A stretch of 64,000 nucleotides of DNA from an uncultured Syntrophobacteraceae bacterium (GCA_964603955.1 CAZRWT010000002.1:18014-82013); one strand, 5' to 3'; shown: positions 6,716 to 43,188, numbered from the stretch's first letter. A program made the numbers and translations. The notes: a model not told the origin generated them from the letters alone.

Positions 6716-6834
6716 TTGGGTGACGACTCGAGTGGGAATGTAACCGTCGTCCGTGGGTGGATCATGGCGGGCGCTCGAGCCCGGCATTGTAAAGGGCGTT
6801 TGATGTCAGTAAAGACAGACCAGGGAGAAAGTGT

Positions 6835-26726: not shown

Positions 26727-26876
26727 GGTTGCCGTCCTCGCTTACCTTATTGCCCGGTAATGGACCAGCCTACATTTTGAAACGCCCGCACCACTTGCAT
26801 GGGTATGTATGGGATGGCCCCATCTGCCTCCGGTCATGGGAATGTTCCCCGGAACGATAAATGGAATCCGCAGCCT

Positions 26877-29126
26877 TCAATATCCCCGGGCCAGGGCGTC
26901 GGCTGCTTCCTTGAGGTCCAGGTACCACTGGTGTTTGGGGCGGCCGCTTTCCGTGTCCATCTCCGCGAAGGCTTCCTCGATAGGTACTTTTTCGATGCCC
27001 CTTCCGCGCAGGCCCATGGCGTACACCTCCGAGTTCCCGTTTTTCAGGACATCGAGCATGTGGAAGGCGGCGTTGGCTCCCAGGCGGCTGGCGAGGATGC
27101 GGTCGAAGGCCGTGGGGAGCCCGCCCCTCTGGACGTGCCCCAGGATGGCGGTGCGCACTTCGAACTGTCCCTTGCTCTCCTCTTCCATGAGCCGCTGAAT
27201 GAAATCCGTGGTGTAGCGCCGGGAGGAATGTTCGTTGCGCATGAAGATGACCATGCGCTTTCCGCCATCGAAGCTCTTTTTGAGTGTCTTGACGTCTTCG
27301 TTGAGTTCGGCCAGGCTGATGCCGTATTCGGGCAGGTAGGCTTTTTCGGCTCCCGTGGCCAGGGCGCTCATGAGCGCCAGGAAGCCGCACCTGCGGCCCA
27401 TGACTTCCACGATGAAGGTGCGGCGGGTGGCCCCCGCCGTGTGGCGGATTTTGTCCGCCGCTTCGACGATGTTGTTCAAGGCCGTGTCCACTCCGATGGA
27501 AAATTCGGTGCCGGGGAGGTTGTTGTCGATGGTCGCGGGCAGGAGGACCATGGGAATGTTGAGTTCGTCGAATTCCCGGCGCCGTTCCACCAGTTGAGCC
27601 ACCTTTCGGTAGGTGCCCCAGCCTCCGATGGCGATGAGTCCCCGGATGTTGTGGCGGCGGATGTTGGCGGCGATTTCCGCGTAGTCGGTTTCCTTGAAAT
27701 CCACGCGGGCCGTTCCGATTTCCGATCCCGGCCGGTTGACCCAGAGCACCAGTTCGTTCCAGTCCAGGGGGGTGAGCCGCCCCTTGATGAGCCCCACGAA
27801 GCCGTCCCGAACACCAAGAACGGAGGCTCCCTGGTTGATGAGGCAGCGGGCCGCCACGCTCACGGCCGTGTTCATTCCCGGAGAATCGGCGCCTCCCGTG
27901 AGGATGGCCACCGTTCCTTCGTGGGTGCATTCCTGGGCGGGGGTGATGCGCGTGAGCGTCTTGACCAGTTCGAGGGTCTGGATGAAGGAGCCGCCGCGCA
28001 ATTCCTGAGCCCTTGCGTAGTTTCCGTTTTCCACTTCCGCCCGGACGGCCTGGCTCTTTTCCACCACCTCGACCAGGGGGGTGGCCACCACGCGATTTTT
28101 GATCAGTCCCAGCATGTGGCAATGGTCGGCATCGGGGGCGTTCACCAGGGTGTCCACGGCTGCCACTCCCAGCCGGGTGGCCATGATGCGGTCGAAGGCG
28201 GTGGGGGCTCCCCCCCGCTGCACATGCCCGAGGACGGTGACGCGAACATCGAGCTTGAGCCTTTCCGCCAGGATTTGCTTGACTTCGTTGGAGCTGATGA
28301 TGAGCCCGTCGGGATGCCTGGCGCCTTCCGCCACGATGACCATGTGGTGGGGGCGGCCGATCTCGCGGGCTCTCTCGATGGACTTCACCATTTTCTGGTG
28401 CCACCGCAGTTCGAGTTCCTCTTCGGGTACCAGGACCCAGGAGGCTCCTCCCGCCAGGGTGGCGCTCAGGGCCAGGTAGCCGCAATGCCTGCCCATGGTT
28501 TCCAGGATGAAAGTGCGCTGGTGGGACGCCGCCGTGGACGCCAGGTTGTCGATGGCCCGCACGATGTGGTTGAGGGCCGTATCGGCTCCGATGGACATGT
28601 CCGTGCCGTGGAGGTCGTTGTCGATGGAGCCCGGCAGGCCGATGACTTTCAGGGAAGGAGGGGGGGCGGCAGGGGCGGTTTCTTCCTCGCCTTCGTCCCG
28701 GCCCTCGTTTTCGCTTTCTTCGTCATCATCCTTGACCAGGCCTTTGGTCAGTGCTTCCACATGCTCCCGCCACTCGTCGGCCAGGACGTGGGCCCCCATG
28801 AGCGACCCGTCGCCTCCCACGACGATCAATGCATCCAGTCCCAACTCGAGCATGTTCCGGACTGCCAGCCTGCGGCCTTCGGGAGACCGGAACTTTTCCG
28901 ACCGGGCGGTGCCCAGGAAGGTGCCTCCCTTTTGGAGTGCCCCTCCCACATCGTTCCACGAGAGGGGTTTGACGGCGTCCCCCCCCTTGACCAGACCTTC
29001 GTACCCGTCGTAAATGCCGTAAATGGTCAGGCCTCTCTGAATGGCTCTTCGAACCACCGCCCTCACGGCCGCGCTCATTCCTGGAGAATCGCCTCCGCTG
29101 GTCATGACCCCCAAGGTTTTGATCAT
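26877..29126 (-). CDS. pfkA: tandem-fused (two-domain) 6-phosphofructokinase, 749 aa
   Basis: The N-terminal half carries GVMTSGGDSPGMSAAVRAVV, VVGGDGS, PGSIDND, MGRHCG and GHVQRGG. The C-terminal half carries a second, degenerate set: ILTGGADSPGMNTAV, IGGWGT, PATIDNN, MGRRCG and GHVQRGG. An acidic insert DDDEESENEGRDEGEEE sits in the N-terminal half. Confidence 0.9.
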   Translation of the reverse strand: MIKTLGVMTSGGDSPGMSAAVRAVVRRAIQRGLTIYGIYDGYEGLVKGGDAVKPLSWNDVGGALQKGGTFLGTARSEKFRSPEGRRLAVRNMLELGLDALIVVGGDGSLMGAHVLADEWREHVEALTKGLVKDDDEESENEGRDEGEEETAPAAPPPSLKVIGLPGSIDNDLHGTDMSIGADTALNHIVRAIDNLASTAASHQRTFILETMGRHCGYLALSATLAGGASWVLVPEEELELRWHQKMVKSIERAREIGRPHHMVIVAEGARHPDGLIISSNEVKQILAERLKLDVRVTVLGHVQRGGAPTAFDRIMATRLGVAAVDTLVNAPDADHCHMLGLIKNRVVATPLVEVVEKSQAVRAEVENGNYARAQELRGGSFIQTLELVKTLTRITPAQECTHEGTVAILTGGADSPGMNTAVSVAARCLINQGASVLGVRDGFVGLIKGRLTPLDWNELVLWVNRPGSEIGTARVDFKETDYAEIAANIRRHNIRGLIAIGGWGTYRKVAQLVERRREFDELNIPMVLLPATIDNNLPGTEFSIGVDTALNNIVEAADKIRHTAGATRRTFIVEVMGRRCGFLALMSALATGAEKAYLPEYGISLAELNEDVKTLKKSFDGGKRMVIFMRNEHSSRRYTTDFIQRLMEEESKGQFEVRTAILGHVQRGGLPTAFDRILASRLGANAAFHMLDVLKNGNSEVYAMGLRGRGIEKVPIEEAFAEMDTESGRPKHQWYLDLKEAADALARGY

Positions 29127-29169
29127 GATAAAGACCCCCTCATGGTGAAAGTGTAATCTGGTTTTTGCT

Positions 29170-29802: not shown

Positions 29803-32800
29803 ATGTTCATGAATGAAAAAAAAGCATCTCAGCCAGTAACTGGCGCGGTAATGGTGGTTGGAGGCGGTATCGCCGGGGTGCAGTCGGCTCTCGATCTGGC
29901 GGAGTCGGGCTACTACGTTTACCTGGTGGAAAACAGCCCTTCCATTGGTGGTGTGATGGCGCAGTTGGACAAGACTTTTCCGACCAACGACTGTTCCATG
30001 TGTATCCTTTCCCCCAAGCTGGTGGAAGGGGGCCGTCACCTCAACATTAAACTCATGACCCTGTGCGATGTGGAAGCCCTCGATGGAGAGGCCGGCAATT
30101 TCACCGTGACGGTGAAGGAACGCCCGAGATACATCGATACGACAAAGTGCATCGCCTGCGGGGTCTGTGCCGAAAAGTGCCCCAAGAAGGTCGAGGACAC
30201 CTTCAATGAAGGCCTGGGACCTCGCAAGGCGGCTTACGTCAAGTATCCCCAGGCGGTTCCTCTCAAGTATGCCATCGACGAGGACAACTGTATTTATTTC
30301 AAAAACGGCAAGTGCCGCGCCTGTGAAAAGTTCTGTCCCGCCGGTGCTGTTGATTTCAATCAGAAGCCTCAGACGCACACCGTCCAGGTGGGTTCCGTCA
30401 TTCTCGCCCCCGGCTTCAAGGCCTTCAGCCCCGAAGTCTATGATACCTACGGTTTCGGGAAATATCCCAACGTGATCACCAGCATGCAGTTTGAGCGCAT
30501 CCTGAGTGCTTCGGGTCCCTTCGAAGGCCACCTGGTGCGTCCTTCCGACAAGAAGGAGCCCAAAAAGATTGCCTGGCTCCAGTGCGTGGGGTCCCGCGAC
30601 ATCCACCATGGGGCTCACGGCTACTGTTCCGGCGTGTGCTGTATGTACGCCATCAAGGAAGCGGTCATCGCCAAGGAGCATTCCAAGGAAGGGCTCGATA
30701 CGGCCATCTTCTTCATGGACATGCGCACTTACGGCAAGGATTTCGAGCGCTATTACAACCGGGCCAAAGGAGAGACGGGGGTACGCTTCATCCGGTCCCG
30801 TATCCACAGTGTGGCCACCCTTCCCGGTACCGATGACCTGGTGCTCGAATATGCCGACGAAAACGGTCAGCTTCAAAGTGAAGTCTTCGACATGGTGGTT
30901 TTGTCCATCGGCCTGGAAATCGGCGACGAACTGAAGAAAATGGCGGAAAGAATCGGAGTGGGGCTCGATGCCGATGGGTTTGCGCAAACGAGCTGCTTCA
31001 CGCCCGTGGCCACTTCGAAAGAAGGTGTTTTCGCCTGTGGCGCCTTTTCCGGTCCCAAGGACATTCCCTACTCGGTCATGGAAGCATCCGCGGCATCTGC
31101 GGCATCCGCCGCCCTGCTTTCTTCCGTGCGGGGCACCCTCACCCAGGAAAAGACCTACCCGGCCGAGGAGGATGTGGAAAAAGAAGAGCCGCGTGTCGGT
31201 GTTTTTGTCTGCCATTGCGGCATCAACATCGGCAGCGTGGTGAATGTTCCAGGGGTGAAGGAATATGCCCGGTCCCTCCCCGGAGTGGCTTACGTGGCGG
31301 AAAACCTTTTCACCTGTTCGCAGGACACGCAGCAGATCATTCGCGATGCCATCAAGGAACACAAGCTCAACCGCGTAGTGGTGGCGGCCTGTACGCCCCG
31401 CACCCATGAGCCCCTCTTCCAGGAAACCATCCGCGAGGCGGGCCTCAACCGTTATCTTTTTGAACTGGCCAACATTCGCGACCAGGATTCCTGGGTGCAT
31501 CAGGCCGAACCCGAAAAGGCCACGGAAAAGGCCAAGGACCTGGTGCGCATGGCGGTGGCCAAGGTGGCGTTGCTCGAACCTATCGAGCGCATGAGGGTCG
31601 ATTTGAACCAGGATGCCCTGGTGATCGGCGGTGGTGTTTCGGGCATGAGCGCCGCCGTGAACCTGGCGGACCAGGGCTTCAAGACCTACCTTGTCGAGGA
31701 AAAGCCCGAACTTGGCGGCCATGCCCTCAAGGTGCATAAGACCTGGAAAGGCGAAGATGTTGCTTCCTACGTCAAGGCACTGGTGGACAAGGTCGAAAAG
31801 CATGCCAATATCGAGGTGCTCAAGGGCGCCAAGGTGACCGATGTTTCCGGCTTCGTGGGGCAGTTCAAGACCACGGTGCAGACCGACGGCGCGGCTCGCG
31901 AATTGGAGCACGGGGTGGCCATTATCGCCACGGGCGCTCATTCCCTGGCTCCCGATCTGTACCTCTACGGTCAAAATGATCGCGTGAGCCGCTGGCACGA
32001 CTTGCAAAAAATGCTTGAGGAAGACCCCAAAAAGCTGGACGAGGCGGAAGCTGTGGCCTTCATCCAGTGTGTAGGGTCCCGCGAACCCGAACGTCCCTAC
32101 TGCTCGAAAATCTGCTGTACCGCTTCGGTGCAACAGGCACTGGACCTCAAGGCGAAAAAGCCGGACCTGGATGTTTACATCCTGTATCGCGACATGCGTA
32201 CTTACGGCGGACGGGAAGACCTGTACAAAAAGGCCCGCGAGCAGGGCGTTCTTTTCATTCGTTTCAACCAGGATGAAAAGCCGACCGTGGAAGCCGTGAA
32301 GGACGGCGGCAAGGAAAAATTGCGGCTCACCGTCAAGGACCATATCCTGGGGCGTCCCATCAAGATCGATGTGGATTACCTCAACCTGGCCACGGCCATC
32401 ATTCCCAAGGGCCAGGAAGAGCTGGCCAAGTTCTTCAAGGTGCCCCTCAATGAAGACGGCTTCTTCCTGGAAGCCCACATGAAACTGCGCCCGGTGGATT
32501 TTGCCACGGACGGCGTGTTCATTGCCGGTCTGGCGCATTATCCCAAGCCCATCGAGGAGTCCATCGCCCAGGCCCAGGCGGCGGCGGCTCGGGCATCGAG
32601 CGTGCTGGCCAAGCCCTATGTCGAGGTCGAGCCGGTTGTTTCCGTGGTGAACCAGGATATGTGTATCGGCTGCGGACTCTGTGAAGCTTCCTGTCCCTTC
32701 GGGGCCATTCGGCTGCACAAAATCGTCGGCAAGGGGTATCGAGCTGAAACCATTTCCGCATCCTGCAAGGGCTGCGGTGTTTGCGCCGCGTCGTGTCCCA

Positions 32801-32877
32801 TGAAAGCCATCGACATGATGCATTTCCGTGACCGTCAAATCTGTGCTGCGATTCGTGCGGGTGGTGCACGTCAATAG
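29803..32877 (+). CDS. hdrA: large HdrA-like flavoprotein (internally duplicated HdrA core; HdrL-like), Cys form
   Basis: 1024 aa. First FAD site VVGGGIAGVQSALDLAESG; second dinucleotide site VIGGGVSGMSAAVNLADQG. Two copies of the HdrA cluster motif are present: CVGSRDIHHGAHGYCSGVCC and CVGSREPERPYCSKICC. Several ferredoxin-type CxxCxxCxxxCP motifs. Confidence 0.88.
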   Translation: MFMNEKKASQPVTGAVMVVGGGIAGVQSALDLAESGYYVYLVENSPSIGGVMAQLDKTFPTNDCSMCILSPKLVEGGRHLNIKLMTLCDVEALDGEAGNFTVTVKERPRYIDTTKCIACGVCAEKCPKKVEDTFNEGLGPRKAAYVKYPQAVPLKYAIDEDNCIYFKNGKCRACEKFCPAGAVDFNQKPQTHTVQVGSVILAPGFKAFSPEVYDTYGFGKYPNVITSMQFERILSASGPFEGHLVRPSDKKEPKKIAWLQCVGSRDIHHGAHGYCSGVCCMYAIKEAVIAKEHSKEGLDTAIFFMDMRTYGKDFERYYNRAKGETGVRFIRSRIHSVATLPGTDDLVLEYADENGQLQSEVFDMVVLSIGLEIGDELKKMAERIGVGLDADGFAQTSCFTPVATSKEGVFACGAFSGPKDIPYSVMEASAASAASAALLSSVRGTLTQEKTYPAEEDVEKEEPRVGVFVCHCGINIGSVVNVPGVKEYARSLPGVAYVAENLFTCSQDTQQIIRDAIKEHKLNRVVVAACTPRTHEPLFQETIREAGLNRYLFELANIRDQDSWVHQAEPEKATEKAKDLVRMAVAKVALLEPIERMRVDLNQDALVIGGGVSGMSAAVNLADQGFKTYLVEEKPELGGHALKVHKTWKGEDVASYVKALVDKVEKHANIEVLKGAKVTDVSGFVGQFKTTVQTDGAARELEHGVAIIATGAHSLAPDLYLYGQNDRVSRWHDLQKMLEEDPKKLDEAEAVAFIQCVGSREPERPYCSKICCTASVQQALDLKAKKPDLDVYILYRDMRTYGGREDLYKKAREQGVLFIRFNQDEKPTVEAVKDGGKEKLRLTVKDHILGRPIKIDVDYLNLATAIIPKGQEELAKFFKVPLNEDGFFLEAHMKLRPVDFATDGVFIAGLAHYPKPIEESIAQAQAAAARASSVLAKPYVEVEPVVSVVNQDMCIGCGLCEASCPFGAIRLHKIVGKGYRAETISASCKGCGVCAASCPMKAIDMMHFRDRQICAAIRAGGARQ

Positions 32878-32963
32878 ATATCGATAGATAGCTGTTTTTT
32901 GAACCTCTTGAATCCTCCGGGGCCTTGCGGGGCTCCGGAGCCCCATGAAACAGGAGATGTGAA

Positions 32964-33722
32964 ATGAGTCAAACTTTCGAGCCGAAGATTCTGGCCTTCC
33001 TATGCAACTGGTGTGCATATGCCGGGGCCGACCTGGCGGGCGTGTCCCGCTTTCAATACCCGCCGACCATCCGGGTCATCCGCACCATGTGCTCGGGCCG
33101 CGTCGATCCCACTCACGTGGTGGAGGGGTTGAAGAGCGGCTTTGACGGTGTCTTCGTCTTTGGTTGACACCTCGGCGACTGTCATTACCTGGAAGGTAAT
33201 GTTTATACCCAGAAGCGTATGCGCGTTGTGTCCCGGTTGCTGGAACTGGCCGGTATCGGCAGTGACAGGATGCACCTGAGATGGGTGAGTGCCGCGGAGG
33301 GACAGATTTTCGCGGATTTTGTAAAGGAATTGAGCGCTGTCATCGGTGAAAAGGGCCCCTTCGATCCCAAGGAGCATCAGTTGAAGCTGGCCGCTGTGGA
33401 GGGAGCATTGAATTCTCCTCGCCTCAGGTGGCTTTTGGGCATGGATCGGCAGCTCACCGAGCGGGAGAATGTGTATCACCATAAGTTGGACGATGCGGCT
33501 TATGAGAAGCTGGTGGATCAGGCGACGGAAGAAGAGTATCAGAAAGCCATGATCCTGGAGGTTCTCAAGGATGGGCCGCAATCAGTGCGCGAAATCGCAG
33601 GCAAGAGCGGGCTGCCGATTTACACGGTGTCTCAGCTGCTCGGTGACATCGAAAAGGCCGGTAAAATCGAGTTTCACGGCTACGAAGGGACCACACCGAA
33701 GTTCATCAGGCTGGCGGCATAG
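32964..33722 (+). CDS. mvhD: MvhD-like protein with in-frame UGA (probable Sec at 33165..33167) and C-terminal winged-helix-like extension
   Basis: Track ORFs 32964..33167 and 33219..33722 share a frame, and the only stop between them is this TGA. VFVFG-TGA-HLGDCHYLEGN aligns to VWVSGCHPGDCHYIEGN of the paralog at 37032. The C-terminal region is ILEVLKDGPQSVREIAGKSGLPIYTVSQLLGDIEKAGKIEF. Confidence 0.8.
33183..33201 (+). other. putative bacterial SECIS-like hairpin for UGA 33165
   Basis: CATTACC tggaa GGTAATG: a 7-bp perfect stem starting 15 nt after the UGA, with a GG-containing loop. Confidence 0.55.
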
Positions 33723-33845: not shown

Positions 33846-36800
33846 ATGATGAACGCTAGCAATAACAATAAAGTCGGCGCTGTAATGGTCGTCGGAGCCG
33901 GCATCGCCGGCATGCAGGCGGCCCTGGACCTGGCAGATTCAGGTTATTACGTCCATCTCGTGGACCGCTCACCCACCGTGGGCGGGATCATGGCTCAGCT
34001 GGACAAGACGTTCCCGACCAACGACTGTGCCATGTGAGTCATCTCACCCAAACTGGTCGAGGTCGGCCGGCATCATAATGTAAATATCATCACCAACTCT
34101 TCCGTTGATTCTCTGGAGGGGGAAGCTGGAAACTTTACGGCAAAGCTCAAAACTCAACCGAGGTACATCGATCCGCTGCGCTGCACCGGTTGCGGCGACT
34201 GCGCCAAGGTGTGCCCCGTGACAAGCGTCAACGAGCACAACTGTGGACTGGACAAGCGTGCGGCTACCTATATCCGCTATGCTCAGGCCGTGCCCCTGGT
34301 TTTTGCCATCGATACGGACATCTGTATCGGGTGCGGCCTTTGTGAAAAAGTGTGTCTGGCCCAGGCCATCAAGTACGACGATCAGGCCCGCTACACCGAA
34401 GTGAAGATCGGGTCCGTCATTTTGGCCACCGGTAACGACGTGTTCGATCCTTCTCATTTCGATACCTACAGCTACGCTCAACTTCCCAACGTGATCACCA
34501 GTATGGAGTTCGAGCGTATTCTCAGTGCTTCCGGTCCTTATATGGGCCATCTCATGCGGCCCTACGACCGGGAAGAGCCCAGAAAGGTCGCCTGGTTGCA
34601 ATGCGTGGGTTCCCGAGACACGCACCACTGTGACAATCCCTACTGTTCGGGCGTGTGTTGTATGTATGCCATCAAGGAAGCCGTCATCGCCAAGGAGCAT
34701 TCGCACAGCGGCATGGAGGCGTCCATCTTCTATATGGACATGCGCACTTACGGAAAAGACTTCGAGCAGTATTACGACAAGGCCAAGGAAGAAGGCGTGC
34801 GATTTATCCGGTCGCGCGTCCATTCGGTGGAACCGGTGGGGGATGGAGACCTCGAAATCACCTATGCGGATGAAACCGGCCAGGTCAAGCAGGAAGTGTT
34901 CAACCTGGTGATCCTTTCCGTAGGGTTCCAGGTAGGGAAGGAAGGCATCGAGCTTGCTGAAAAGCTTGGTATCGACCTCAATGAAAACCGTTTCGTCAAA
35001 ACCGACAGTTTCACCCCCGTGGCCACTTCGCGGGAAGGTGTGTATGTCTGCGGAACCTTCCAGGGTCCCAAGGACATTCCCCAGTCCGTGATGGAAGCAT
35101 CGGCGGCGGCGTCGGCATCCAGCCTCCTTTTGAGCGACGCGCGCTGGACCGAAGCCACGGTCAAGGAAAAGCCCACGGAAAGAAATATCATCGGTGAACG
35201 CCCCCGCATCGGCGTGTTTGTGTGCCAGTGCGGTATCAACATCGGCGGCATCGTGAACATTCCCAAGGTGCGGGAATATGCCCGTACCCTGCCTTATGTG
35301 ACTTATGTGGAAGACAATCTCTATACCTGTTCCCAGGACACCCAGGTGAAAATGGCCCAGGTGATCAAGGAACAGGGGATCAACCGCGTGGTGGTGGCTG
35401 CCTGTACGCCTCGTACTCACGAGCCTCTCTTCCAGGAGACTCTGGCCAACGCGGAACTGAACAAGTACCTCTTTGAAATGGCCAACATTCGAAACCAGGA
35501 TTCCTGGGTGCATTCGGGCGATCCCGTGAAAGCCACGGAGAAAGCCATGGACCTGGTGCGCATGGCCGTTTCCAAGGTAGCCCTCCTCGAACCCCTCAAG
35601 GAATCGGAACTGGGAGTGACGAGGAAGGCCATGGTGGTCGGCGGCGGTGTTGCCGGCATGGTGGCGGCCAAGGAACTGGCGGACCAGGGGTATCCCGTGT
35701 ACCTCGTGGAGAGGTCTGCACAGTTGGGCGGCCAGGCGAGGAAGCTGTTCCAGACCTGGAGGGGCGAGAGCATCCCGGCCTATGTGGATGAGCTGGCCAA
35801 AGAAGTGGAAAACCACCCCAACATCACGCTTTACCTGAACAGTGAACTGAAAAACGTGGACGGGTTTGTAGGGAATTTCAAGTCTACCATTCAAAACGGC
35901 GGTGAACCGGAACTCGTCGAGCACGGGGTCACCATCATCGCCACGGGTGGTCGAGAACTGCAACCCGAGGAATATTGCTATAAAAAACATCCCCGTATCG
36001 TGACGCATCAGGAACTGGATCAGCGGTTCGCTGAGAAAGATCCCAGTCTCAAGAGCATCAACAGTGCCGTTTTCATTCAGTGCGTGGGCTCGCGAGAACC
36101 TGACCGTCCCTATTGCAGCCGAGTTTGCTGCACCCATTCCGTGGAGAGCGCTCTCGAGCTGAAAAAGCTCAATCCCGAAAGTGATGTGTATGTGCTCTAC
36201 CGGGATATGCGGACTTACGGGGAACGTGAATTGATTTACCAGGAAGCCCGCAAGAAAGGTGTGATCTTCATCCGCTACTCCCTGGACAACAAGCCCCAGG
36301 TGGAAGTGGTGAACGACAAGGTCCAGGTGACCGTGTTCGATCCCATCCTTCAGCGGCCCATCCGTGTGGTGAGTGACCTGGTGACGCTGGCGACGGCCAT
36401 CCTTCCCAATGAAACCGATGCCCTGTCTCAGTTTTTCAAGGTACCGGTCAACGCGGAAGGGTTTTTCATCGAGGCCCATGCCAAGCTGCGTCCCGTGGAT
36501 TTCTCCACGGACGGTGTGTTTTTATGCGGTCTGGCCCACTATCCCAAGGCCATTGACGAGAGCATCGCTCAGGCCAAGGCTGCGTCGGCCCGCGCCGCGA
36601 CCCTCCTGGCTCGCGACTCGATTTTCTTCAGTGGGATGGTGGCCTACACGAGGCCCATCGATTGCAGCAGCTGCGGGGTTTGTGTGAGCATCTGCCCGTT
36701 CAGTGCGCCGCGTTTCATCGAGACGGGGCGGGATGCGGGCAAGGCGGAAATCAACCCGGCTCTTTGCAAGGGCTGCGGGCTTTGCGTGGCTTCGTGCCGT

Positions 36801-36866
36801 TCGGGTGCCATCGGGCTGCGAGGCTTCGATGACTCCCAGATTTTTGCCATGATCGATAATGTTTGA
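33846..36866 (+). CDS. hdrA: large HdrA-like flavoprotein, selenocysteine form (UGA at 34035..34037)
   Basis: Track ORFs 33846..34037 and 34209..36866 share a frame, and I read no other stop between them. [21 protein letters not shown] aligns to FPTNDCSMCILSPKLVEGG of the paralog at 29803. The rest is collinear with paralog 1 ([37 protein letters not shown]). Confidence 0.85.
34053..34070 (+). other. putative bacterial SECIS-like hairpin for UGA 34035
   Basis: CTGGTCG aggt CGGCCGG: a 7-bp stem including 2 G-U pairs, loop AGGU, starting 15 nt after the UGA. Confidence 0.5.
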
Positions 36867-37031: not shown

Positions 37032-37463
37032 ATGTCCGATTGGGAACCGAAAATCGTAGCCTTCCTGTGCAACTGGTGTTCGTATGGGGCGGCGGACCTC
37101 GCAGGCGTCAGCCGCATGCAGTATCCGCCGAACTTTCGTGTCATCAGAGTACCTTGTACAGGTCGAATCAATCCTAAATTCATTCTTTCCGCCCTGCGTC
37201 ACGGCGCGGATGGGGTATGGGTGTCCGGATGCCACCCCGGAGATTGCCATTACATCGAGGGGAACCTCTACGCGCGCCGGAAATTTGCCCTTTTGAAAAA
37301 CATGTTGGAGCATATGGGCATCGAGCCCAAACGTCTCCATTTTTCATGGATTTCTTCCGCGGAATCCACCAAGTTTGCCGATGTGGCTCGCGAAGTGATC
37401 CGTACGGTCAAGGAAGCAGGTCCGGCTCGACATTTCATCAAAAAGCAAGCTGAGGTGGCGTAG
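37032..37463 (+). CDS. mvhD: MvhD/FlxD-like protein (methyl-viologen-reducing hydrogenase delta subunit family), Cys form
   Basis: 143 aa. Motifs KIVAFLCNWCSYGAADLAG, RVPCTGR and VSGCHPGDCHY. Confidence 0.88.
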   Translation: MSDWEPKIVAFLCNWCSYGAADLAGVSRMQYPPNFRVIRVPCTGRINPKFILSALRHGADGVWVSGCHPGDCHYIEGNLYARRKFALLKNMLEHMGIEPKRLHFSWISSAESTKFADVAREVIRTVKEAGPARHFIKKQAEVA

Positions 37464-38414
37464 ATGCAAGCATATACCGAACGGATTCGAGAGGCGGCGA
37501 AACGCTTGTTGAGTGAGGGCAAGGCGGATGTGGTGATCGGATTTCGCAAGGGCACCATTCCCTTCATGAACGAGCCCTACCTTGCCAAAACGGCCGAACA
37601 GGTCGATCAGCTCATGTGGGACGGCAACTGTGGTGTGAACCTCGCCAATTATCTCACCAAGAGGACGGATCGCGTTGCCGTTGTGGCCAAGGGGTGCGAT
37701 TCGAGAAACATCGTGGAGCACATTGTCGAGAACCAGGTCAAACGCGACAACCTCCACATCATCGGAGTCCCCTGCAAGGGGATGATCGACAAGCGTCGCA
37801 TCAACGGCGAACTCAAGGGCAAGGAGCCTTTGACCGTCGAGGAAACGGAAAAGGAAATTCAGATTAAGGGCCGTGACTGGAACTTGACGCTGGATCGTAA
37901 GGAATTCCTCCAGGAAAATTGTGCCATCTGTATCCACCGCAATCCCGTCATTTACGATGAGCTGGTGGGTGACCTGGTGGAGGAGCAGAAAGACGTTGAT
38001 CGTTACGCCGACGTGAGGAAGATCGAGGCCATGGGTGCCGAGGAGAAATGGAAATATTTCGACGATCTCATCTCCGGGTGCATCCGCTGTTATGCCTGCC
38101 GCAACGCCTGTCCGGCATGCTATTGCCCGACCTGCTTCGTGGATGAGTCGCGGCCTCAGTGGGTGGGAAAATCCACTGATCCCACCGACACGCGCACCTT
38201 TCACTTTTTGAGGGCTTACCACCTGGCGGGGCGTTGTACCGATTGCGGCTCCTGTGAGAGGGCCTGTCCCGTGGGCATCAAGGTACGCCAATTCAATAAG
38301 AAGCTCGAGAAGGACGTCAAGGAACTGTTCGATTACGAAGCCGGGATCAACCCGGATGTGCGCCCGGCTCTCGACTTCTATCGACCCGATGATCCCCAGG
38401 GATTCATCAAGTGA
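37464..38414 (+). CDS. 4Fe-4S cluster protein (FlxB/FlxC- or FrhB-related)
   Basis: 316 aa. The start ATG directly follows the mvhD stop. Motifs CIRCYACRNACPACYCPTC and CTDCGSCERACP. Confidence 0.7.
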   Translation: MQAYTERIREAAKRLLSEGKADVVIGFRKGTIPFMNEPYLAKTAEQVDQLMWDGNCGVNLANYLTKRTDRVAVVAKGCDSRNIVEHIVENQVKRDNLHIIGVPCKGMIDKRRINGELKGKEPLTVEETEKEIQIKGRDWNLTLDRKEFLQENCAICIHRNPVIYDELVGDLVEEQKDVDRYADVRKIEAMGAEEKWKYFDDLISGCIRCYACRNACPACYCPTCFVDESRPQWVGKSTDPTDTRTFHFLRAYHLAGRCTDCGSCERACPVGIKVRQFNKKLEKDVKELFDYEAGINPDVRPALDFYRPDDPQGFIK

Positions 38415-38557: not shown

Positions 38558-39604
38558 ATGTCGGAAATTTATATCTCCAAAGAAAAATTTCCAGAAGTCG
38601 TAGGACAGCTCATGAGCCGCGGTCGTGTCTATGGACCCGTGTTTCAAGGGATGTATCATGAGTTTGCCCGGCTGGAGAAACCGGAAGACATAGACCTCGG
38701 CTTTCAGAACACGCGCCTTTCGCCAAAGGAGCTTTTTCATCCTCAATGTGAAAGGATGTTCACCTATTCCCTGGCCAAGGACGATCCCGAGTGTTGCATC
38801 GTCAAGGAAGCTCCCAAGGATTACTCGCCTCGAGTGGTTTTGGGCATCCGTCCCTGTGACGCCAAGGCGTTTCAACTGGACGACTGCAACTTCGACACGG
38901 AAACCATCAAGGACCCCTGGTGGGTGGAAAGAAGAAAAACCACCACCCTGGTGGGGCTTGCCTGCAACACCCCTTGCAACACCTGTTTTTGTACCACGGT
39001 GGGTACCGGCCCCTTCGATACATCGGGACTGGACGCGCTCATGGTGGATGTGGGAGACGGCTATGTGATCCGTGCCGTCACGGACAAGGGCAAAGAATGC
39101 ATCGGGGCCGTGAAGGGCGCTCAAGCGGTGCCGACCCCCGCCGCAGAAAAGGAAGCCCAGCTCAAAAAAGCGGCCGAGGACGGCATGGGCCAGGTATTCG
39201 ATATGAAGCCCATCTACGAGAAAAAGACCCTGGACCTTTTCAACGATCCCCTTTGGGATGAGGTCCAGTTCGCGTGCATCAACTGCGGAACCTGCACTTT
39301 TGTATGCCCCACCTGCTGGTGCTTCGACATTCAGGACGAAGTTCAGGGAGATGCGGGAGACCGCTTGAAAATGTGGGATTCCTGCATGTTTCCCCTGTTC
39401 ACCTTCCATGGGTCGGGTCACAATCCGCGCTCTCAAAAGCTTCAGAGGGTTCGGCAGCGGTTCATGCACAAGCTCAAGTACTATCCCGAAAAGTACGGAA
39501 ACGGACCGACTTGCGTGGGTTGTGGTCGCTGTGTGAAGTCCTGCCCGGTCAACATCGACATTCGACATGTGGCTCGCCTCATGTCCGCAGCCTGCAGTTG
39601 TTAG
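38558..39604 (+). CDS. 4Fe-4S dicluster protein (AsrA / sulfhydrogenase-beta / FlxB/C-like)
   Basis: 348 aa. Motifs CINCGTCTFVCPTCWCFD and CVGCGRCVKSCP. Positioned directly upstream of an AsrB/HydG-like flavoprotein. Confidence 0.7.
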   Translation: MSEIYISKEKFPEVVGQLMSRGRVYGPVFQGMYHEFARLEKPEDIDLGFQNTRLSPKELFHPQCERMFTYSLAKDDPECCIVKEAPKDYSPRVVLGIRPCDAKAFQLDDCNFDTETIKDPWWVERRKTTTLVGLACNTPCNTCFCTTVGTGPFDTSGLDALMVDVGDGYVIRAVTDKGKECIGAVKGAQAVPTPAAEKEAQLKKAAEDGMGQVFDMKPIYEKKTLDLFNDPLWDEVQFACINCGTCTFVCPTCWCFDIQDEVQGDAGDRLKMWDSCMFPLFTFHGSGHNPRSQKLQRVRQRFMHKLKYYPEKYGNGPTCVGCGRCVKSCPVNIDIRHVARLMSAACSC

Positions 39605-39634: not shown

Positions 39635-40477
39635 GTGAGGAATCCTTATCTGCCTTATCCTGTCCGTATCGAGTCCATCGTGACGGAAACGGAAGATCGC
39701 AATCTCAAGACGTTCAAGTTCGTCTTTCTCAACAAGGAAGACGAAGAGAGCTTCAAATACATTCCCGGCCAGTTTGCCGAGCTTTCCGTGCCGGGCCAGG
39801 GCGAAATCCCCATCGGTATCGCCTCGTCCCCCACGGAAAAAGGCTTCATCATGTTCACGGTCAACAAGGTGGGGAAGGTATCGAGCTACATGCACAACAT
39901 GCAGGTCGGCGACATCATGGGTGTGCGCGGCCCCCTGGGCAACTGGTACCCCTGGGAAACGCTCGAGGGCAAGAATATCGTCATCATCGGCGGTGGTTTT
40001 GCCTTCACGACCCTGCGCTCGTCCATCGAGTACATGTTGCAGCCCGAAAACCGCTCCCGTTTCGGGAAGATCGACGTGGTTTACGGCGCCCGGACCCCCG
40101 GCCTTTTGCTCTACAAGGACCAGTTGGCGGCCTGGGAACAGCGGGACGACATCGACATGCACATCACCGTGGATTCCAGCAACGACCCCAACTGGAAGTA
40201 CAACGTGGGTTTCGTGCCGGCGGTGACCAAGGAGAAGGCCCCGAGCGCGGAAAATTCCTACGCCATCATCTGCGGGCCCCCCATCATGATCAAGTTCACC
40301 CTGCCGGTGCTGACCGAACTGGGATTCCCGCCCGAGCGGATCATTTCCAGTCTCGAAATGAGGATGAAATGTGGCATCGGCATTTGCGGTCGCTGTAACC
40401 TGGGGACCGAGTATGTTTGTAAGGACGGTCCCGTTTTCACGTTGGAAAAGCTTTCCCAGTTGCCCAACGAGTATTGA
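39635..40477 (+). CDS. FAD/NAD(P)H-binding oxidoreductase with C-terminal 2Fe-2S (AsrB / HydG / PyrK / FlxA-like)
   Basis: 280 aa, GTG start with GGAGGA RBS. Motifs FKYIPGQFAEL, VIIGGGFAFTTLRS and a C-terminal CGIGICGRCNLG. Confidence 0.8.
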   Translation: MRNPYLPYPVRIESIVTETEDRNLKTFKFVFLNKEDEESFKYIPGQFAELSVPGQGEIPIGIASSPTEKGFIMFTVNKVGKVSSYMHNMQVGDIMGVRGPLGNWYPWETLEGKNIVIIGGGFAFTTLRSSIEYMLQPENRSRFGKIDVVYGARTPGLLLYKDQLAAWEQRDDIDMHITVDSSNDPNWKYNVGFVPAVTKEKAPSAENSYAIICGPPIMIKFTLPVLTELGFPPERIISSLEMRMKCGIGICGRCNLGTEYVCKDGPVFTLEKLSQLPNEY

Positions 40478-40641
40478 TTTCGAGCATTGTTTTTTGCTGT
40501 GAAGCCTCGTGCATTGTCCTCGAGCCGGGGGCGATGCGCGGGGAAGACGTCTCACGGAAAAAGTGCTTCAAATGAAGAGTACCGTGTGTTATAGGCTTTA
40601 AGCGAGCCATCTACTTGAAAAACATTTCAGGGGAGAGAATT

Positions 40642-41862
40642 ATGGAGCCATTGCTGTTGACAAAGCGCGATAAGCGCAAACTGGCGAGCCAATACGCCGA
40701 CCTGTGCCTCACCTGTGGCACTTGTTCCGGTGGCTGTCCGGTCACAGGTGTTGACGGCCTGGATGTGCGGAAAGTCGTGCGCCTGGCCTTGCTCGGGTTG
40801 GATCAGGAAGTGATCGACTCGAAATTTCCTTGGGTTTGTACCCTCTGTGGACGGTGTGAGCACGCATGTCCCATGAACATCGACCTCCTTGCCCTGCTGC
40901 GGTCCGCCCGTAGCAAAAGAGCCAGGGACAAGGTGCCCGGTGTGCTGCACAAGGGTGTCGAGATGTGCTTGAAGACCGGCAACAACGTGGGCATTCCCAA
41001 GGATGACTTTGTCTTCCTGCTGGAAGATCTGGGAGTGGAGTTGGCCGAGGAACTGCCGGGTTTCGAGGTTCCCGTGGACAAAAAGGGAGCCAAGTACCTT
41101 TTCACCATCAATTCCAAGGAACCCTTCGCCGAACCCGAAGACATGATGTACTGGTGGCGTATCCTGTATGCCGCCAATGAATCGTGGACGGTGCCGTCGG
41201 AAAACTGGGAAGGTGTCAACTGGGGTCTGTTCACTGGTGACGACGAGGCCATGAAGGAAATCGTCGGACGCCTGGTGAAGAACTACAAGGAACTCGAGTG
41301 CGAGTACCTTGTCTTACCCGAATGAGGCCACGCTTACTATGCGACCAGGCTTGGTCTGCAAAAATGGTATGCCGACGAAGGCGTCAAGTTCCTCAGTATT
41401 CATGATCTCCTCACTTCGTATGTGAAAGAGGGTCGGATTAAACTGGACAAGACGATTCATCATCATCTGACCACGTATCACGATCCTTGCAACTATGCGC
41501 GTAAGAGCGAGCGCACTTTCGGCCACGGCTACTACGAGGAGCCCCGTTGGGTGACTCAGCAGTGCTGTGAGAATTTCGTGGAAATGTATCCCAACCGCGC
41601 CAACAATTTCTGTTGCGGTGCCGGCGGCGGTGCCTGGGCTTCCCCCTACGTGGAAGAGAGAATCTTCTACGGCAGGACCAAGGCCAAACAAATCAAGGAC
41701 ACCGGGGCCAAGCTGCTCATCGCTCCGTGTCACAACTGTCGTGACCAGATCATGAAGAGCCTCCGCAAGGAGTACGATTTTGAAGATGTAGAAGTCAAAT
41801 ACCTCTGGGAGCTGGTGGCCGACTCTTTGATCATCGAGCCCCGCGAGGAAGCCGAAGAATAA
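40642..41862 (+). CDS. fused HdrC/HdrB-type (HdrD/DsrK/GlpC-like) Fe-S protein with in-frame UGA (probable Sec at 41323..41325)
   Basis: Start at MEPLLL (GGGAGAG RBS). N-terminal ferredoxin motifs CLTCGTCSGGCP and CTLCGRCEHACP. Track ORFs 40615..41325 and 41422..41862 share a frame, and the only stop between them is this TGA. The C-terminal CCG domain reads DPC...CCGAGGG...PCHNC. Confidence 0.72.
41341..41359 (+). other. putative bacterial SECIS-like hairpin for UGA 41323
   Basis: GCGACC aggctt GGTC(t)GC: 6 bp with one bulge, a GG-containing loop, starting 15 nt after the UGA. Confidence 0.4.
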
Positions 41863-41891: not shown

Positions 41892-41935
41892 AGCCCCAGA
41901 ATCGCGCCGTCGGCGTGTGCATGGGGCTTTTTTTT
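41892..41935 (+). terminator. intrinsic terminator after the hdr/flx-like operon
   Basis: AGCCCCA ...23 nt... TGGGGCT followed by an 8-nt T-run. Confidence 0.6.
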
Positions 41936-41964
41936 GCCCTCTCAACCACAAATCAAGTGTGGGT

Positions 41965-43188
41965 ATGAAAAAGAAACGAGACACCAAAAAAGCAAAAAAG
42001 AGCAGCGTGACTCTCTCCCGGGAAGACCAGCTCGAGTTGCAGATGATCCTGGATCGCCTTTCCGTCCAGAATCCTGATGGAGAGAGCTTCCATAATTACC
42101 TGGAATCGCTTGCGGGAATCCTTGGGAACCGGGAGGAATTCACTCTCGCTTTCCTGGAAGATTTGAGTAGGAAGCCCACGGTGGCGGGATTCAAAGTGTT
42201 CCAAAAGCTGAAGGATATTGTGAGGGGATCGGATAACAAGAGAGCCGTGAGGCAGGCGGCCTACAGGTTCGAGCAAAAAGGTTTTACCGTGGACGAGGGG
42301 AGTGAGGCTCGAGAAAAAGTTGTACTGGTTTCCAAAGAAGAGCGCAAAGCGGCGGCTCACCTCATTTCCATGGGAGGGACTTTCGGTTTTGTGGCAGCCA
42401 TCGTTCCGATCGAGGGTTATCCTGTTCCCATGGCTTTGACCGTTTACGCGCATGTTGCATCGGAAGCCATCAAGGCAAGCGTGACTCAGAGCTCCCACAG
42501 TGTTTATCGGGATTACCTGCGGATGGTTGCCGGAGAAGTTCCTGGATCAAATATCTGTGAGGTGCCCATCAGCCATGCGGCTCGTTTGGTGTTCGAATTG
42601 CCGGATTTGCTCGGGAGGCATGGGTATGTGGTCGAACTGGAAAGGGCTAAGGAACTCCTGAAACCCTACCATGATCCTCAAAAACCTCCACATATTCATG
42701 TTTTGATGGAAAAAATCGAGCATCCGGGCGAGGCGATACGGGCGGTTCGTATCCGGGAACTGATGGAGCACCTGGACCTTTCATGGCTCTTGTTTTCCCA
42801 GGAAGAACTGGCACCGTATCGCGATGATCTGGAAAGTTCGCGCAGCACCGTGCTCGTGCTGTCGACGGATATCATGCAGGATCGCACACAAGCCTTGTTG
42901 AAGCGGGCAGCCGACTCCTTGTGCGTCGGCAATAAAAAGCATTTCTACATCCGCTTTTTCGAAGAACAGGCACTGGTGTTTTATCTTTCCGGCATGATGA
43001 ATGCCGCTAAAGACGCCTGGATCACGGCACAACACCTTGCATCGGATCTGCCGCCCGGTGAAAATCCTGTTGTCGTCCAAGTGATTCTCTCGTCCATACA
43101 TGAACACTGGCCGGAAGCAAGCGAAGTGGCGCAGGAAGAACCGGAGCCTTACGAAACGACCGATTCAGGGTTGCTGATTCTGCGGTGA
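41965..43188 (+). CDS. hypothetical protein (no recognisable domain)
   Basis: 407 aa from MKKKRDTKKAKKSS. Coding-like composition. Located after a terminator and before yjbQ. Confidence 0.55.
   Translation: MKKKRDTKKAKKSSVTLSREDQLELQMILDRLSVQNPDGESFHNYLESLAGILGNREEFTLAFLEDLSRKPTVAGFKVFQKLKDIVRGSDNKRAVRQAAYRFEQKGFTVDEGSEAREKVVLVSKEERKAAAHLISMGGTFGFVAAIVPIEGYPVPMALTVYAHVASEAIKASVTQSSHSVYRDYLRMVAGEVPGSNICEVPISHAARLVFELPDLLGRHGYVVELERAKELLKPYHDPQKPPHIHVLMEKIEHPGEAIRAVRIRELMEHLDLSWLLFSQEELAPYRDDLESSRSTVLVLSTDIMQDRTQALLKRAADSLCVGNKKHFYIRFFEEQALVFYLSGMMNAAKDAWITAQHLASDLPPGENPVVVQVILSSIHEHWPEASEVAQEEPEPYETTDSGLLILR

Follow-up and report, generated by a model that had tools for sequence, protein, structure and literature searches.

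A UGA codon within a long mvhD-like gene of an Hdr-like operon as a predicted selenocysteine codon

Two open reading frames (ORFs), 32964..33167 and 33219..33722, lie in one common frame on the plus strand of the 64-kb stretch of DNA analysed here (hereafter the window), and the question that they raise is whether they represent a gene interrupted by a true stop codon, or a single gene in which an internal UGA is decoded as selenocysteine (Sec). According to the initial annotation, the only stop between them is the TGA at 33165..33167, and the two ORFs are parts of one mvhD-like gene. Translation of 32964..33722 confirmed that this TGA, which is codon 68, is the single stop in the frame; likewise, the union of both ORFs into one gene is supported by a match to the family PF02662 that runs through the TGA. 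The codons between the two ORFs, 17 in number, are HLGDCHYLEGNVYTQKR. Regarding the start of translation, a Shine-Dalgarno-like AGGAG precedes the ATG at 32964, and inspection of the sequence upstream of the ATG at 33219 revealed no Shine-Dalgarno motif comparable to it; this fits with one gene that starts at 32964. The features of the locus are collected in Table 1.

Table 1. Features of the mvhD-like locus and of the operon in which it is located (positions in the window)
Feature	Position	Strand	Remarks
Tandem HdrA-like protein, 1024 aa	29803..32877	+	Cys in FPTNDCSMC
Shine-Dalgarno-like AGGAG	32952..32956	+	7 nt 5' of ATG 32964, read from the sequence
Long MvhD/FlpD gene, 252 aa, predicted Sec at residue 68	32964..33722	+	PF02662, homologs, PDB chains
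In-frame UGA, predicted Sec68, motif F-G-U-H-L-G-D-C-H-Y	33165..33167	+	Cys column, TGA in other species
Candidate SECIS hairpin	33183..33201	+	Arms CAUUACC(U) / (A)GGUAAUG; loop GGA, or UGGAA with U-A open
Tandem HdrA-like protein, 1006 aa	33846..36866	+	In-frame UGA 34035..34037
Short MvhD with Cys	37032..37463	+	
Fe-S protein	37464..38414	+	
ShyB/AsrA-like protein	38558..39604	+	
ShyC/AsrB-like protein, FAD/NAD-binding	39635..40477	+	
GlpC/HdrD-like Fe-S protein, last gene of the operon	40615..41862	+	In-frame UGA 41323..41325, LVLPE-U-GHAYY

The merged product of 252 residues was used in the searches with a Cys in place of the stop. PF02662 (FlpD, methyl-viologen-reducing hydrogenase delta subunit; cut-off 22.3 bits) was matched over residues 9–127 with a score of 163.7 bits; that is, the domain of the FrhD/MvhD/VhuD family is found above its curated threshold and continues unbroken through the UGA. 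The NCBIfam equivalog model for VhuD (NF045873) gave 115.9 bits, under its cut-off of 215; as far as its sequence goes, the focal protein is a homolog of the methanogen VhuD and not a VhuD equivalog. Its layout comprises an MvhD [2Fe-2S]-type domain (residues ~5–135) and a C-terminal extension of ~115 residues that ends in a winged-helix-like segment, with weak matches to winged-helix Pfam families at residues 187–238. HTH families had already been assigned, as precomputed annotations, to homologs of the focal protein. Conserved Cys positions in this protein are five, i.e., 14, 17, 43, 68 (here the UGA) and 73; residue 17 is a Cys that forms part of the sequence CNWC.

In the homologs, the residue that faces the TGA is a Cys. 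The short MvhD paralog encoded within the window (37032..37463) aligns with 52% identity over 128 residues (E 1e-55), ungapped through the TGA, and the Cys of its VSGCHPGDCHY motif lies opposite to it; hence, the 17 intervening codons do extend the MvhD alignment to this paralog, as had been claimed. The MvhD chains present in the PDB also align without gaps (5ODC_D, E 3e-45 over 134 residues, 7BKB_F, 9SW2_D and 8RVU_F), and a Cys is found opposite the TGA in five PDB sequences of the MvhD/VhuD type, in the motif G-C-H-x-G-D-C-H-Y. A search of 5.8 billion proteins revealed more than 110 full-length homologs of 252 residues with 57–79% identity, many of them labelled "hydrogenase iron-sulfur subunit" and belonging to Syntrophobacter and Syntrophobacteraceae; across the homologs the motif around the invariant Cys reads G-C-H-x-G-D/E-C-H-Y. 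Among the 120 best homologs, 113 show Cys at this column within the strict motif, and the others show it in a slightly different motif, save for three exceptions. One of these (P0111) is a fragment of 167 residues with 95% identity to the focal protein, and the remaining two (P0084 and P0110, both JGI proteins) show W at the column. The W was traced to DNA for P0084 alone of the two, and its locus carries TGA; the stored protein is not reproduced from it under table 11. The Sec/Cys pair that distinguishes the FrhD/MvhD/VhuD family is, in consequence, seen with the paralog, with the PDB chains and with the homologs.

The presence of TGA at the same column in other organisms was evaluated by scanning genomes, one per species (GTDB), with the pattern TGA-CAY-NNN-GGN-GAN-TGY-CAY-TA. 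Among the matches listed, 118 of 121 are bona fide MvhD genes in which the upstream part is in frame with the TGA; the 60–70 upstream codons of these MvhD matches begin FLCNWCSYAGADLAGVSR... and at least 118 MvhD genes of other species have TGA at the same column. With Cys in at least 113 of the 120 best homologs and TGA in these genes, the presumption that homologs carry either Cys or Sec at this position was borne out. The hosts include Desulfobacterota (Desulfosarcina, Desulfosudis, Syntrophobacteraceae, Smithellaceae and others), as well as Syntrophomonadaceae, Desulforudis, Pelotomaculum, Dehalococcoidia and Planctomycetota; Sec users among the host lineages are the Deltaproteobacteria, Syntrophomonas and Firmicutes of the Desulfotomaculum type (PMC1794560). 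The contig that encodes P0111 (L241) shows 98% nucleotide identity to the window and retains the TGA, and the codons that flank it differ only by synonymous changes at the third position (GGT to GGG, GGC to GGA). In the MvhD loci that were fetched, the predicted Sec occurs only at the G-U-H site in the majority of cases, as expected from the design of the scan, only at CxxU in L034 and L156, and at both sites in L024, L043, L044 and L112. Some of the homologs with two Sec are short.

Downstream of the TGA the initial annotation had described a perfect hairpin of 7 bp, exactly 15 nt past the UGA and with GG in its loop, that was interpreted as a bacterial SECIS element; its distance, its pairing and the GG of its loop were confirmed. 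Fifteen bases (33168..33182) separate the TGA from the stem, which is formed by CATTACC (33183..33189) and GGTAATG (33195..33201) around the sequence tggaa, and RNAfold predicts an extra U-A pair that results in a stem of 8 bp with a GGA loop. The hairpin falls within the stretch that encodes H-Y-L-E-G-N-V, with its loop ~22 nt away from the UGA. In the window, 11 of the 2025 TGA trinucleotides (0.5%, both strands) precede a comparable hairpin, i.e., a perfect 7-bp Watson-Crick stem that starts 11 to 25 nt downstream. The folding energy of the single sequence is unexceptional when compared with that of shuffled sequences (z of 0.65 and -0.68); for this reason the hairpin seen in the single sequence is only suggestive, and the case rests on comparative data. 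No Rfam family reached its gathering score in the whole 64-kb window, and a permissive search of positions 33100..33300, with E values up to 10, detected no SECIS family and one chance match to a miRNA (E 0.81). The Rfam models for bacterial SECIS elements represent gene families other than MvhD; therefore, a missing match is no argument against a SECIS, and the covariance-model check that had been suggested was uninformative, given that no Rfam SECIS model matches.

A matched control was provided by a metagenome scan with the same pattern in which TGY replaced TGA; after filtering for MvhD and removal of duplicates, the comparison comprised 107 Sec-type and 105 Cys-type sequences. The mean local folding energy from +10 to +45 is -7.65 kcal/mol in the Sec-type set versus -4.40 kcal/mol in the Cys-type set (Mann-Whitney p 5e-18), and a value of -5 kcal/mol or lower is reached by 100% of the former and 40% of the latter. 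An uninterrupted stem of 6 bp or more close to the site is present in 100/107 Sec-type genes (93%) versus 12/105 Cys-type genes (11%), and this conservation of the stem supports the interpretation of the hairpin as a bacterial SECIS. The usage of codons follows the same line, since the peptide HYLEGN is written with one single set of codons, CATTACCTGGAAGGTAAT, in 43/43 Sec-type genes, and with nine different sets in nine Cys-type genes, none of which is the former (0/9). A drop of the third-position entropy at codons 6, 7, 8, 10 and 11 after the UGA is observed only in the Sec-type set; the codons located just before, for His1, Gly3 and Cys5, vary equally in both sets.

The hairpin of the window (type 1) is present in 85 of the 107 Sec-type genes, with six invariant core pairs and a closing pair that is U-A in 44 sequences, A-U in 8 and G-C in 2. 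The type 1 stem overlaps strongly conserved codons, and classical covariation in it rests on one pair. The same consensus was obtained with RNAalifold from 15 Sec orthologs of the long subfamily, with 6 compensatory cells and compensatory changes in the closing pair. A second hairpin (type 2), UGCCACUA-UGN-UAGUGGCA, is found at the same place in 22 Sec-type genes, mostly from Firmicutes, and starts at +13. Regarding the Cys orthologs of the 252-aa subfamily, the stem is broken by synonymous changes in five out of six; for instance, L245 encodes the same HYLEGN as CAC TAT CTG GAA GGC AAT, which breaks the stem. In L242, the nearest Cys ortholog (TGT, 78% identity), the hairpin is intact, and for this reason the hairpin alone is no proof of recoding; the best reading of this ortholog is that of a recent conversion from Sec to Cys that left a fossil SECIS behind, a situation that has already been described (PMC1794560). 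The element is thus a stem-loop within the ORF and near the UGA, with a G in the loop and conserved in the Sec-type orthologs, as is characteristic of a bacterial SECIS, and the comparison supports a link of the hairpin with the TGA rather than with the encoded amino acids.

The gene is part of a co-directional cluster located downstream of a divergently oriented phosphofructokinase gene, and two other genes of this operon have in-frame UGAs. In the HdrA-like gene, a hairpin with the loop AGGU (34053..34070) starts 15 nt after UGA 34035; in the GlpC/HdrD-like gene, a hairpin with the loop GGCU (41340..41360) also starts 15 nt after UGA 41323. The HdrA paralog at 29803..32877 has a Cys (DCSMC) at the position that matches UGA 34035, and this UGA corresponds to the CxxU Sec of HdrA (PMC13188914, PMC13518236). 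In the GlpC/HdrD-like gene the Pfam CCG domain is encoded 3' of TGA 41323, hence read-through is needed for a complete protein; GlpC has been listed as a selenoprotein family in operons of this kind (PMC1794560). The same gene order is found in L241, L242 and L245, where the split of HdrA is retained. A scan of the operon for promoters and terminators gave nothing above chance, and no genes for hydrogenase large or small subunits were detected in it with Pfam and NCBIfam. By its gene content the operon looks like one that encodes an Hdr-like complex, electron-bifurcating and linked to NAD(P)H, in a bacterium resembling the Syntrophobacteraceae; any substrate ascribed to this complex would be putative. 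Concerning the machinery for Sec insertion, ARAGORN detected no tRNA, hence no tRNA-Sec, in the 64-kb window, and NCBIfam and Pfam scans of ~30 other ORFs in it detected no selA, selB or selD. Sec competence of the organism, i.e., the presence of selABCD in its genome, is implied, and is indirectly supported by the fact that two further genes of the operon, both from known selenoprotein families, contain an in-frame UGA.

If the TGA were a true stop, caused by a nonsense mutation in a pseudogene or by a sequencing error, the products would be a 67-aa fragment and perhaps a separate protein of 167 residues translated from the ATG at 33219. It is true that TGA is the usual stop in this genome, that gene callers split the gene at this point, and that the database contains the 167-aa P0111 together with a 67-aa FlpD fragment of a close relative. 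However, the TGA recurs in the independent assembly that is 98% identical, with synonymous changes on both sides of it, and also in no fewer than 118 other species; the 17 codons past the TGA retain the invariant HxGDCHY, and only in genes with the TGA are the downstream synonymous sites fixed in such a way that a hairpin is formed. Moreover, 33219 is not preceded by a Shine-Dalgarno motif, and neither fragment contains all five of the conserved Cys, which makes a true stop extremely improbable. A different possibility would be that the UGA is read without selenium, as Trp, Cys or Gly, either by the code of table 4 or 25 or by near-cognate suppression that the hairpin merely stimulates; P0084 and P0110, with their W, indicate that some pipelines have applied such a code. 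The stops of the 29 family-supported genes of the window are TGA in 19, TAG in 9 and TAA in 1, and the only internal TGAs in these genes are those at 33165, 34035 and 41323. TGA being the normal stop of 19 of these 29 genes, the recoding is local and does not reflect a changed code, and a global reassignment of UGA is ruled out. In addition, the W of P0084 is a TGA in the DNA that does not match the stored protein under table 11, the column is that of an invariant Cys, which gives the classic Sec/Cys pair, and the taxa with TGA are known Sec users; decoding without selenium has therefore very little to be said for it.

It could also be argued that the hairpin is a by-product of the conserved peptide H-Y-x-x-G-N, in which CAY-UAY pairs with GGN-AAY, and that it has no role in recoding. 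In favour of this idea, the stem is wholly contained in conserved codons and six of its pairs never vary, the Cys ortholog L242 possesses the hairpin, and a stem of 6 bp or longer occurs in 11% of the Cys-type genes. Nevertheless, many codon sets are found for the same peptide in the Cys-type genes, and these genes are mostly stemless, whereas one set is used in the Sec-type genes (43/43 versus 0/9 for HYLEGN); the distributions of energy and stem length differ (p 5e-18), a non-homologous second hairpin occupies the same position in the Sec-type genes of Firmicutes, and L242 is, as mentioned above, best taken as a recent convert with a fossil SECIS. That the peptide alone would account for the hairpin is hence scarcely credible.

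It is almost certain, from the comparative evidence, that positions 32964..33722 form one gene, and that its predicted product is a 252-aa Fe-S electron-transfer subunit of the MvhD/FrhD family with Sec at residue 68. In bacteria, a hairpin located just 3' of the UGA is bound at its apical part by SelB-GTP loaded with Sec-tRNA(Sec), and in this way Sec is brought to the ribosomal A site. We infer that Sec is inserted at UGA 33165 and that SelB binds to the hairpin in the following manner: when the ribosome reaches this UGA, SelB would bind the hairpin at 33183..33201 by means of its G-containing apical loop and would deliver Sec from Sec-tRNA(Sec), termination would be avoided, and translation would proceed through H-L-G-D-C-H-Y and the remaining part of the MvhD domain. 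In the resulting protein, Sec68 would take the place of one of the five invariant Cys around the MvhD [2Fe-2S] centre. In solved complexes, the MvhD-type protein is the connection between a module for electron input and the FAD of HdrA at which bifurcation takes place (PMC6019823, PMC12350162, PMC13518236), and its [2Fe-2S] centre passes single electrons to this FAD. Residue 68 may be a putative ligand of the cluster or a neighbour placed beside it. A bolder proposal would be that long BamF-like MvhD adaptors may carry selenium at either CxxU or G-U-H-x-G-D-C, and that residue 68 could bind the [2Fe-2S] cluster directly as a selenolate if the Cys of CxxC is, as stated in the BamF preprint, a non-ligand redox-active residue near the cluster. 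We consider this proposal rather unlikely; if true, the Sec68 ligand would adjust the potential at the point where electrons enter an as yet uncharacterised bifurcating complex, Hdr-like and linked to NAD(P)H, with three selenoproteins.

As a whole, the finding is a correct but routine instance of a well-described selenoprotein family that ranks among the most frequent ones in bacteria (PMC1794560, PMC5109826); for syntrophic Deltaproteobacteria, selenoproteins of the MvhD/FrhD, HdrA and GlpC families were already known in 2006, and no new principle is involved. Its practical relevance concerns annotation: standard gene callers split three genes of the operon, into products of 67 + 167 aa, of 63 + 885 aa (counted as window ORFs) and of 236 + 146 aa. 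This splitting hides an intact Hdr-like electron-bifurcation operon with three predicted selenoproteins and makes a functional locus resemble a series of pseudogenes. Furthermore, the set of 107 Sec-type and 105 Cys-type MvhD sequences may be useful by itself, since it illustrates cleanly and in quantitative terms how an RNA signal can be contained in conserved codons, and it could seed a covariance model for the MvhD-type bacterial SECIS, which is absent from Rfam.

Compared with known SECIS elements, the hairpin fits the bSECISearch model (Zhang and Gladyshev 2005, cited in PMC5109826). This model reportedly considers a spacing of 16–37 nt and a conserved G in the loop; the loop of the focal hairpin has a G and is ~22 nt distant from the UGA. 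With the fdhF-type SECIS from Escherichia coli it shares the location of the stem-loop, directly 3' of the UGA and within the ORF; in contrast, the focal stem is short (7–8 bp), it has no evident bulged U, and the loop is GGA instead of GGUC. The VhuD from Methanococcus is a selenoprotein. The archaeal VhuD/MvhD proteins taken as reference (PDB 5ODC chain D, 7BKB chain F, and 9SFI chain K, the VhuD from M. maripaludis) have in common with the focal protein the homologous domain, the five Cys positions and, by prediction for the focal protein, a function as the [2Fe-2S] connector that supplies the FAD of HdrA (PMC6019823, PMC13518236). However, the archaeal SECIS is located in untranslated regions and operates by another mechanism, whereas the focal hairpin lies within the reading frame, as is typical of bacteria; the archaeal proteins have ~135–140 residues and lack the C-terminal extension of the 252-aa focal protein, and, unlike the archaeal Hdr-hydrogenase complexes, the focal operon contains no genes for the large or small subunits of a hydrogenase.

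Another protein that resembles the product of this gene is BamF, the MvhD-like adaptor of class II benzoyl-CoA reductase, in which a redox-active Cys near the cluster is the residue replaced by Sec19, in CxxU (bioRxiv 10.64898/2026.04.10.717634). The likeness was judged from the description of BamF, with the L034 homolog as the aligned sequence; this long MvhD homolog, which has its Sec at CxxU, aligns end to end with the focal protein with 36% identity (E 2e-63). BamF and the focal protein both have an MvhD domain followed by an extension of more than 100 residues with a winged helix-turn-helix, both are selenoproteins (the latter by prediction), and each is partnered by a fused HdrA dimer of ~1000 residues. 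The difference resides in the position of Sec, which in BamF is Sec19 of the CxxU motif, whereas the focal protein has Cys17 there and the predicted Sec at residue 68. On account of the BamF-like layout and the ~1000-aa tandem HdrA, a Bam (class II benzoyl-CoA reductase) cluster was considered, and it was discarded because the other bam genes are absent: no homologs of BamB (tungsten aldehyde-oxidoreductase type), BamC or BamGHI adjoin the focal gene, and no NuoEFG-like or tungsten aldehyde-oxidoreductase-type genes were found among its neighbours in the operon.

The closest counterparts are the bacterial FrhD/MvhD selenoproteins reported by Zhang, Romero, Salinas and Gladyshev in 2006, of which Syntrophobacter fumaroxidans has 8 copies, together with 7 HdrA and 3 GlpC selenoproteins encoded in operons shared with FrhD/MvhD; the co-occurrence of these three families in operons extends to other Deltaproteobacteria (PMC1794560). 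Likewise, in the annotation of Desulfococcus multivorans, mvhD is divided by a UGA that is accompanied by a SECIS (PMC5109826). A review from 2026 gives CxxU as the motif of the family, with two Sec in an archaeal representative (PMC13188914); the focal protein differs from it in having a single predicted Sec, at G-U-H-x-G-D-C. The focal gene shares with the bacterial FrhD/MvhD (COG1908, PF02662) the domain family, a UGA that faces Cys and a SECIS-like element within the ORF, and common to both are the HdrA and GlpC selenoprotein partners and the syntrophic or sulfate-reducing Desulfobacterota as hosts. Nothing essential distinguishes them, the focal copy being a member of the long subfamily of 252 residues with a C-terminal winged-helix extension.

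On a 5.6-Mb contig of a relative (L242, ENA ERZ21831265), the nearest Cys ortholog (6001..6759) of the focal mvhD gene has TGT in place of the predicted Sec codon, shares 78% amino acid identity with the focal protein and is located in the same synteny. The hairpin CATTACCTGGAAGGTAATG is intact in this Cys gene, and it looks like a fossil SECIS left by a recent Sec-to-Cys change. A third residue, Trp, appears at this invariant Cys/Sec column in two database proteins (P0084 and P0110). The DNA of P0084 (L244 792..1550, JGI Ga0599216_0029961) has a TGA at the column and its translation with table 11 differs from the stored protein, so the source pipeline took UGA as Trp; judged from this DNA, the Trp of P0084 is an annotation artefact that masks a predicted selenoprotein.

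Other bacterial MvhD homologs carry the predicted Sec at the CxxU position, which is nearer the N-terminus, either alone or together with the one at G-U-H. The presence of CxxU-only and double-site homologs indicates that the bacterial MvhD family has two alternative Sec sites. The hairpin varies as well, since in the Firmicute-type Sec mvhD genes a different one is found at the same place, UGCCACUA-UGN-UAGUGGCA, starting 12 nt past the UGA, and the Sec mvhD genes of Smithellaceae/Syntrophaceae show a third type, with the longer-range pairing GCCAC...GUGGC. The loci for these alternative hairpins are L015, L019, L020, L040, L041, L054, L057, L063, L064, L066, L069, L071, L073, L085 and L090, and also L011, L023, L032 and L097.

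Features of the window, and predicted Sec sites of MvhD homologs at loci (L) fetched from other genomes or metagenomes
Feature	Coordinates	Strand	Remark
Tandem 6-phosphofructokinase (duplicated), 748-aa ORF	26877..29126	-	TIGR02478, 829 bits vs cut-off 708
Tandem HdrA-like gene, ~1006 aa, next after the focal gene	33846..36866	+	own in-frame TGA 34035..34037
GlpC/HdrD-like Fe-S protein gene	40615..41862		third in-frame TGA 41323..41325, LVLPE-U-GHAYY
Three-gene cluster	45495..51456	-	two Hsp70-like proteins, one DUF2760 protein
Sec at CxxU only	L034 6425..7247		274-codon long form
Sec at CxxU only	L156 ~110
Sec at CxxU and G-U-H	L024 ~5994
Sec at CxxU and G-U-H	L043 ~3830	-
Sec at CxxU and G-U-H	L044 ~5867
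Sec at CxxU and G-U-H	L112 ~7338	-

Regarding other genes in the window, TIGR02478 is a 'eukaryotic' phosphofructokinase model, and a score above its cut-off is unusual in a bacterium. The 785-aa ORF that overlies this gene (26799..29156, +), probably spurious and antisense to it, gave zero family matches. One of the two Hsp70-like proteins carries DUF3731, 'DnaK-related'. Immediately 3' of the operon, a candidate 423-aa ORF (41917..43188, +) had no match in Pfam or NCBIfam.

Two further operon genes contain an in-frame TGA. The HdrA-like gene is cut into 63 + 885 aa in the annotation track; its paralog (29803..32877) has Cys (DCSMC) where the TGA is located, and a 7-bp hairpin with the loop AGGU (34053..34070) begins 15 nt 3' of this TGA. 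The split is kept in a contig 98% identical to the window (L241) and in two relatives with the same gene order (L242 and L245); in L242 the HdrA gene still split by TGA adjoins the Cys mvhD. In the GlpC/HdrD-like gene the TGA lies upstream of the Pfam CCG domain, and a hairpin with the loop GGCU (41340..41360) likewise starts 15 nt past it; GlpC is already known as a selenoprotein family in operons of this type (PMC1794560).
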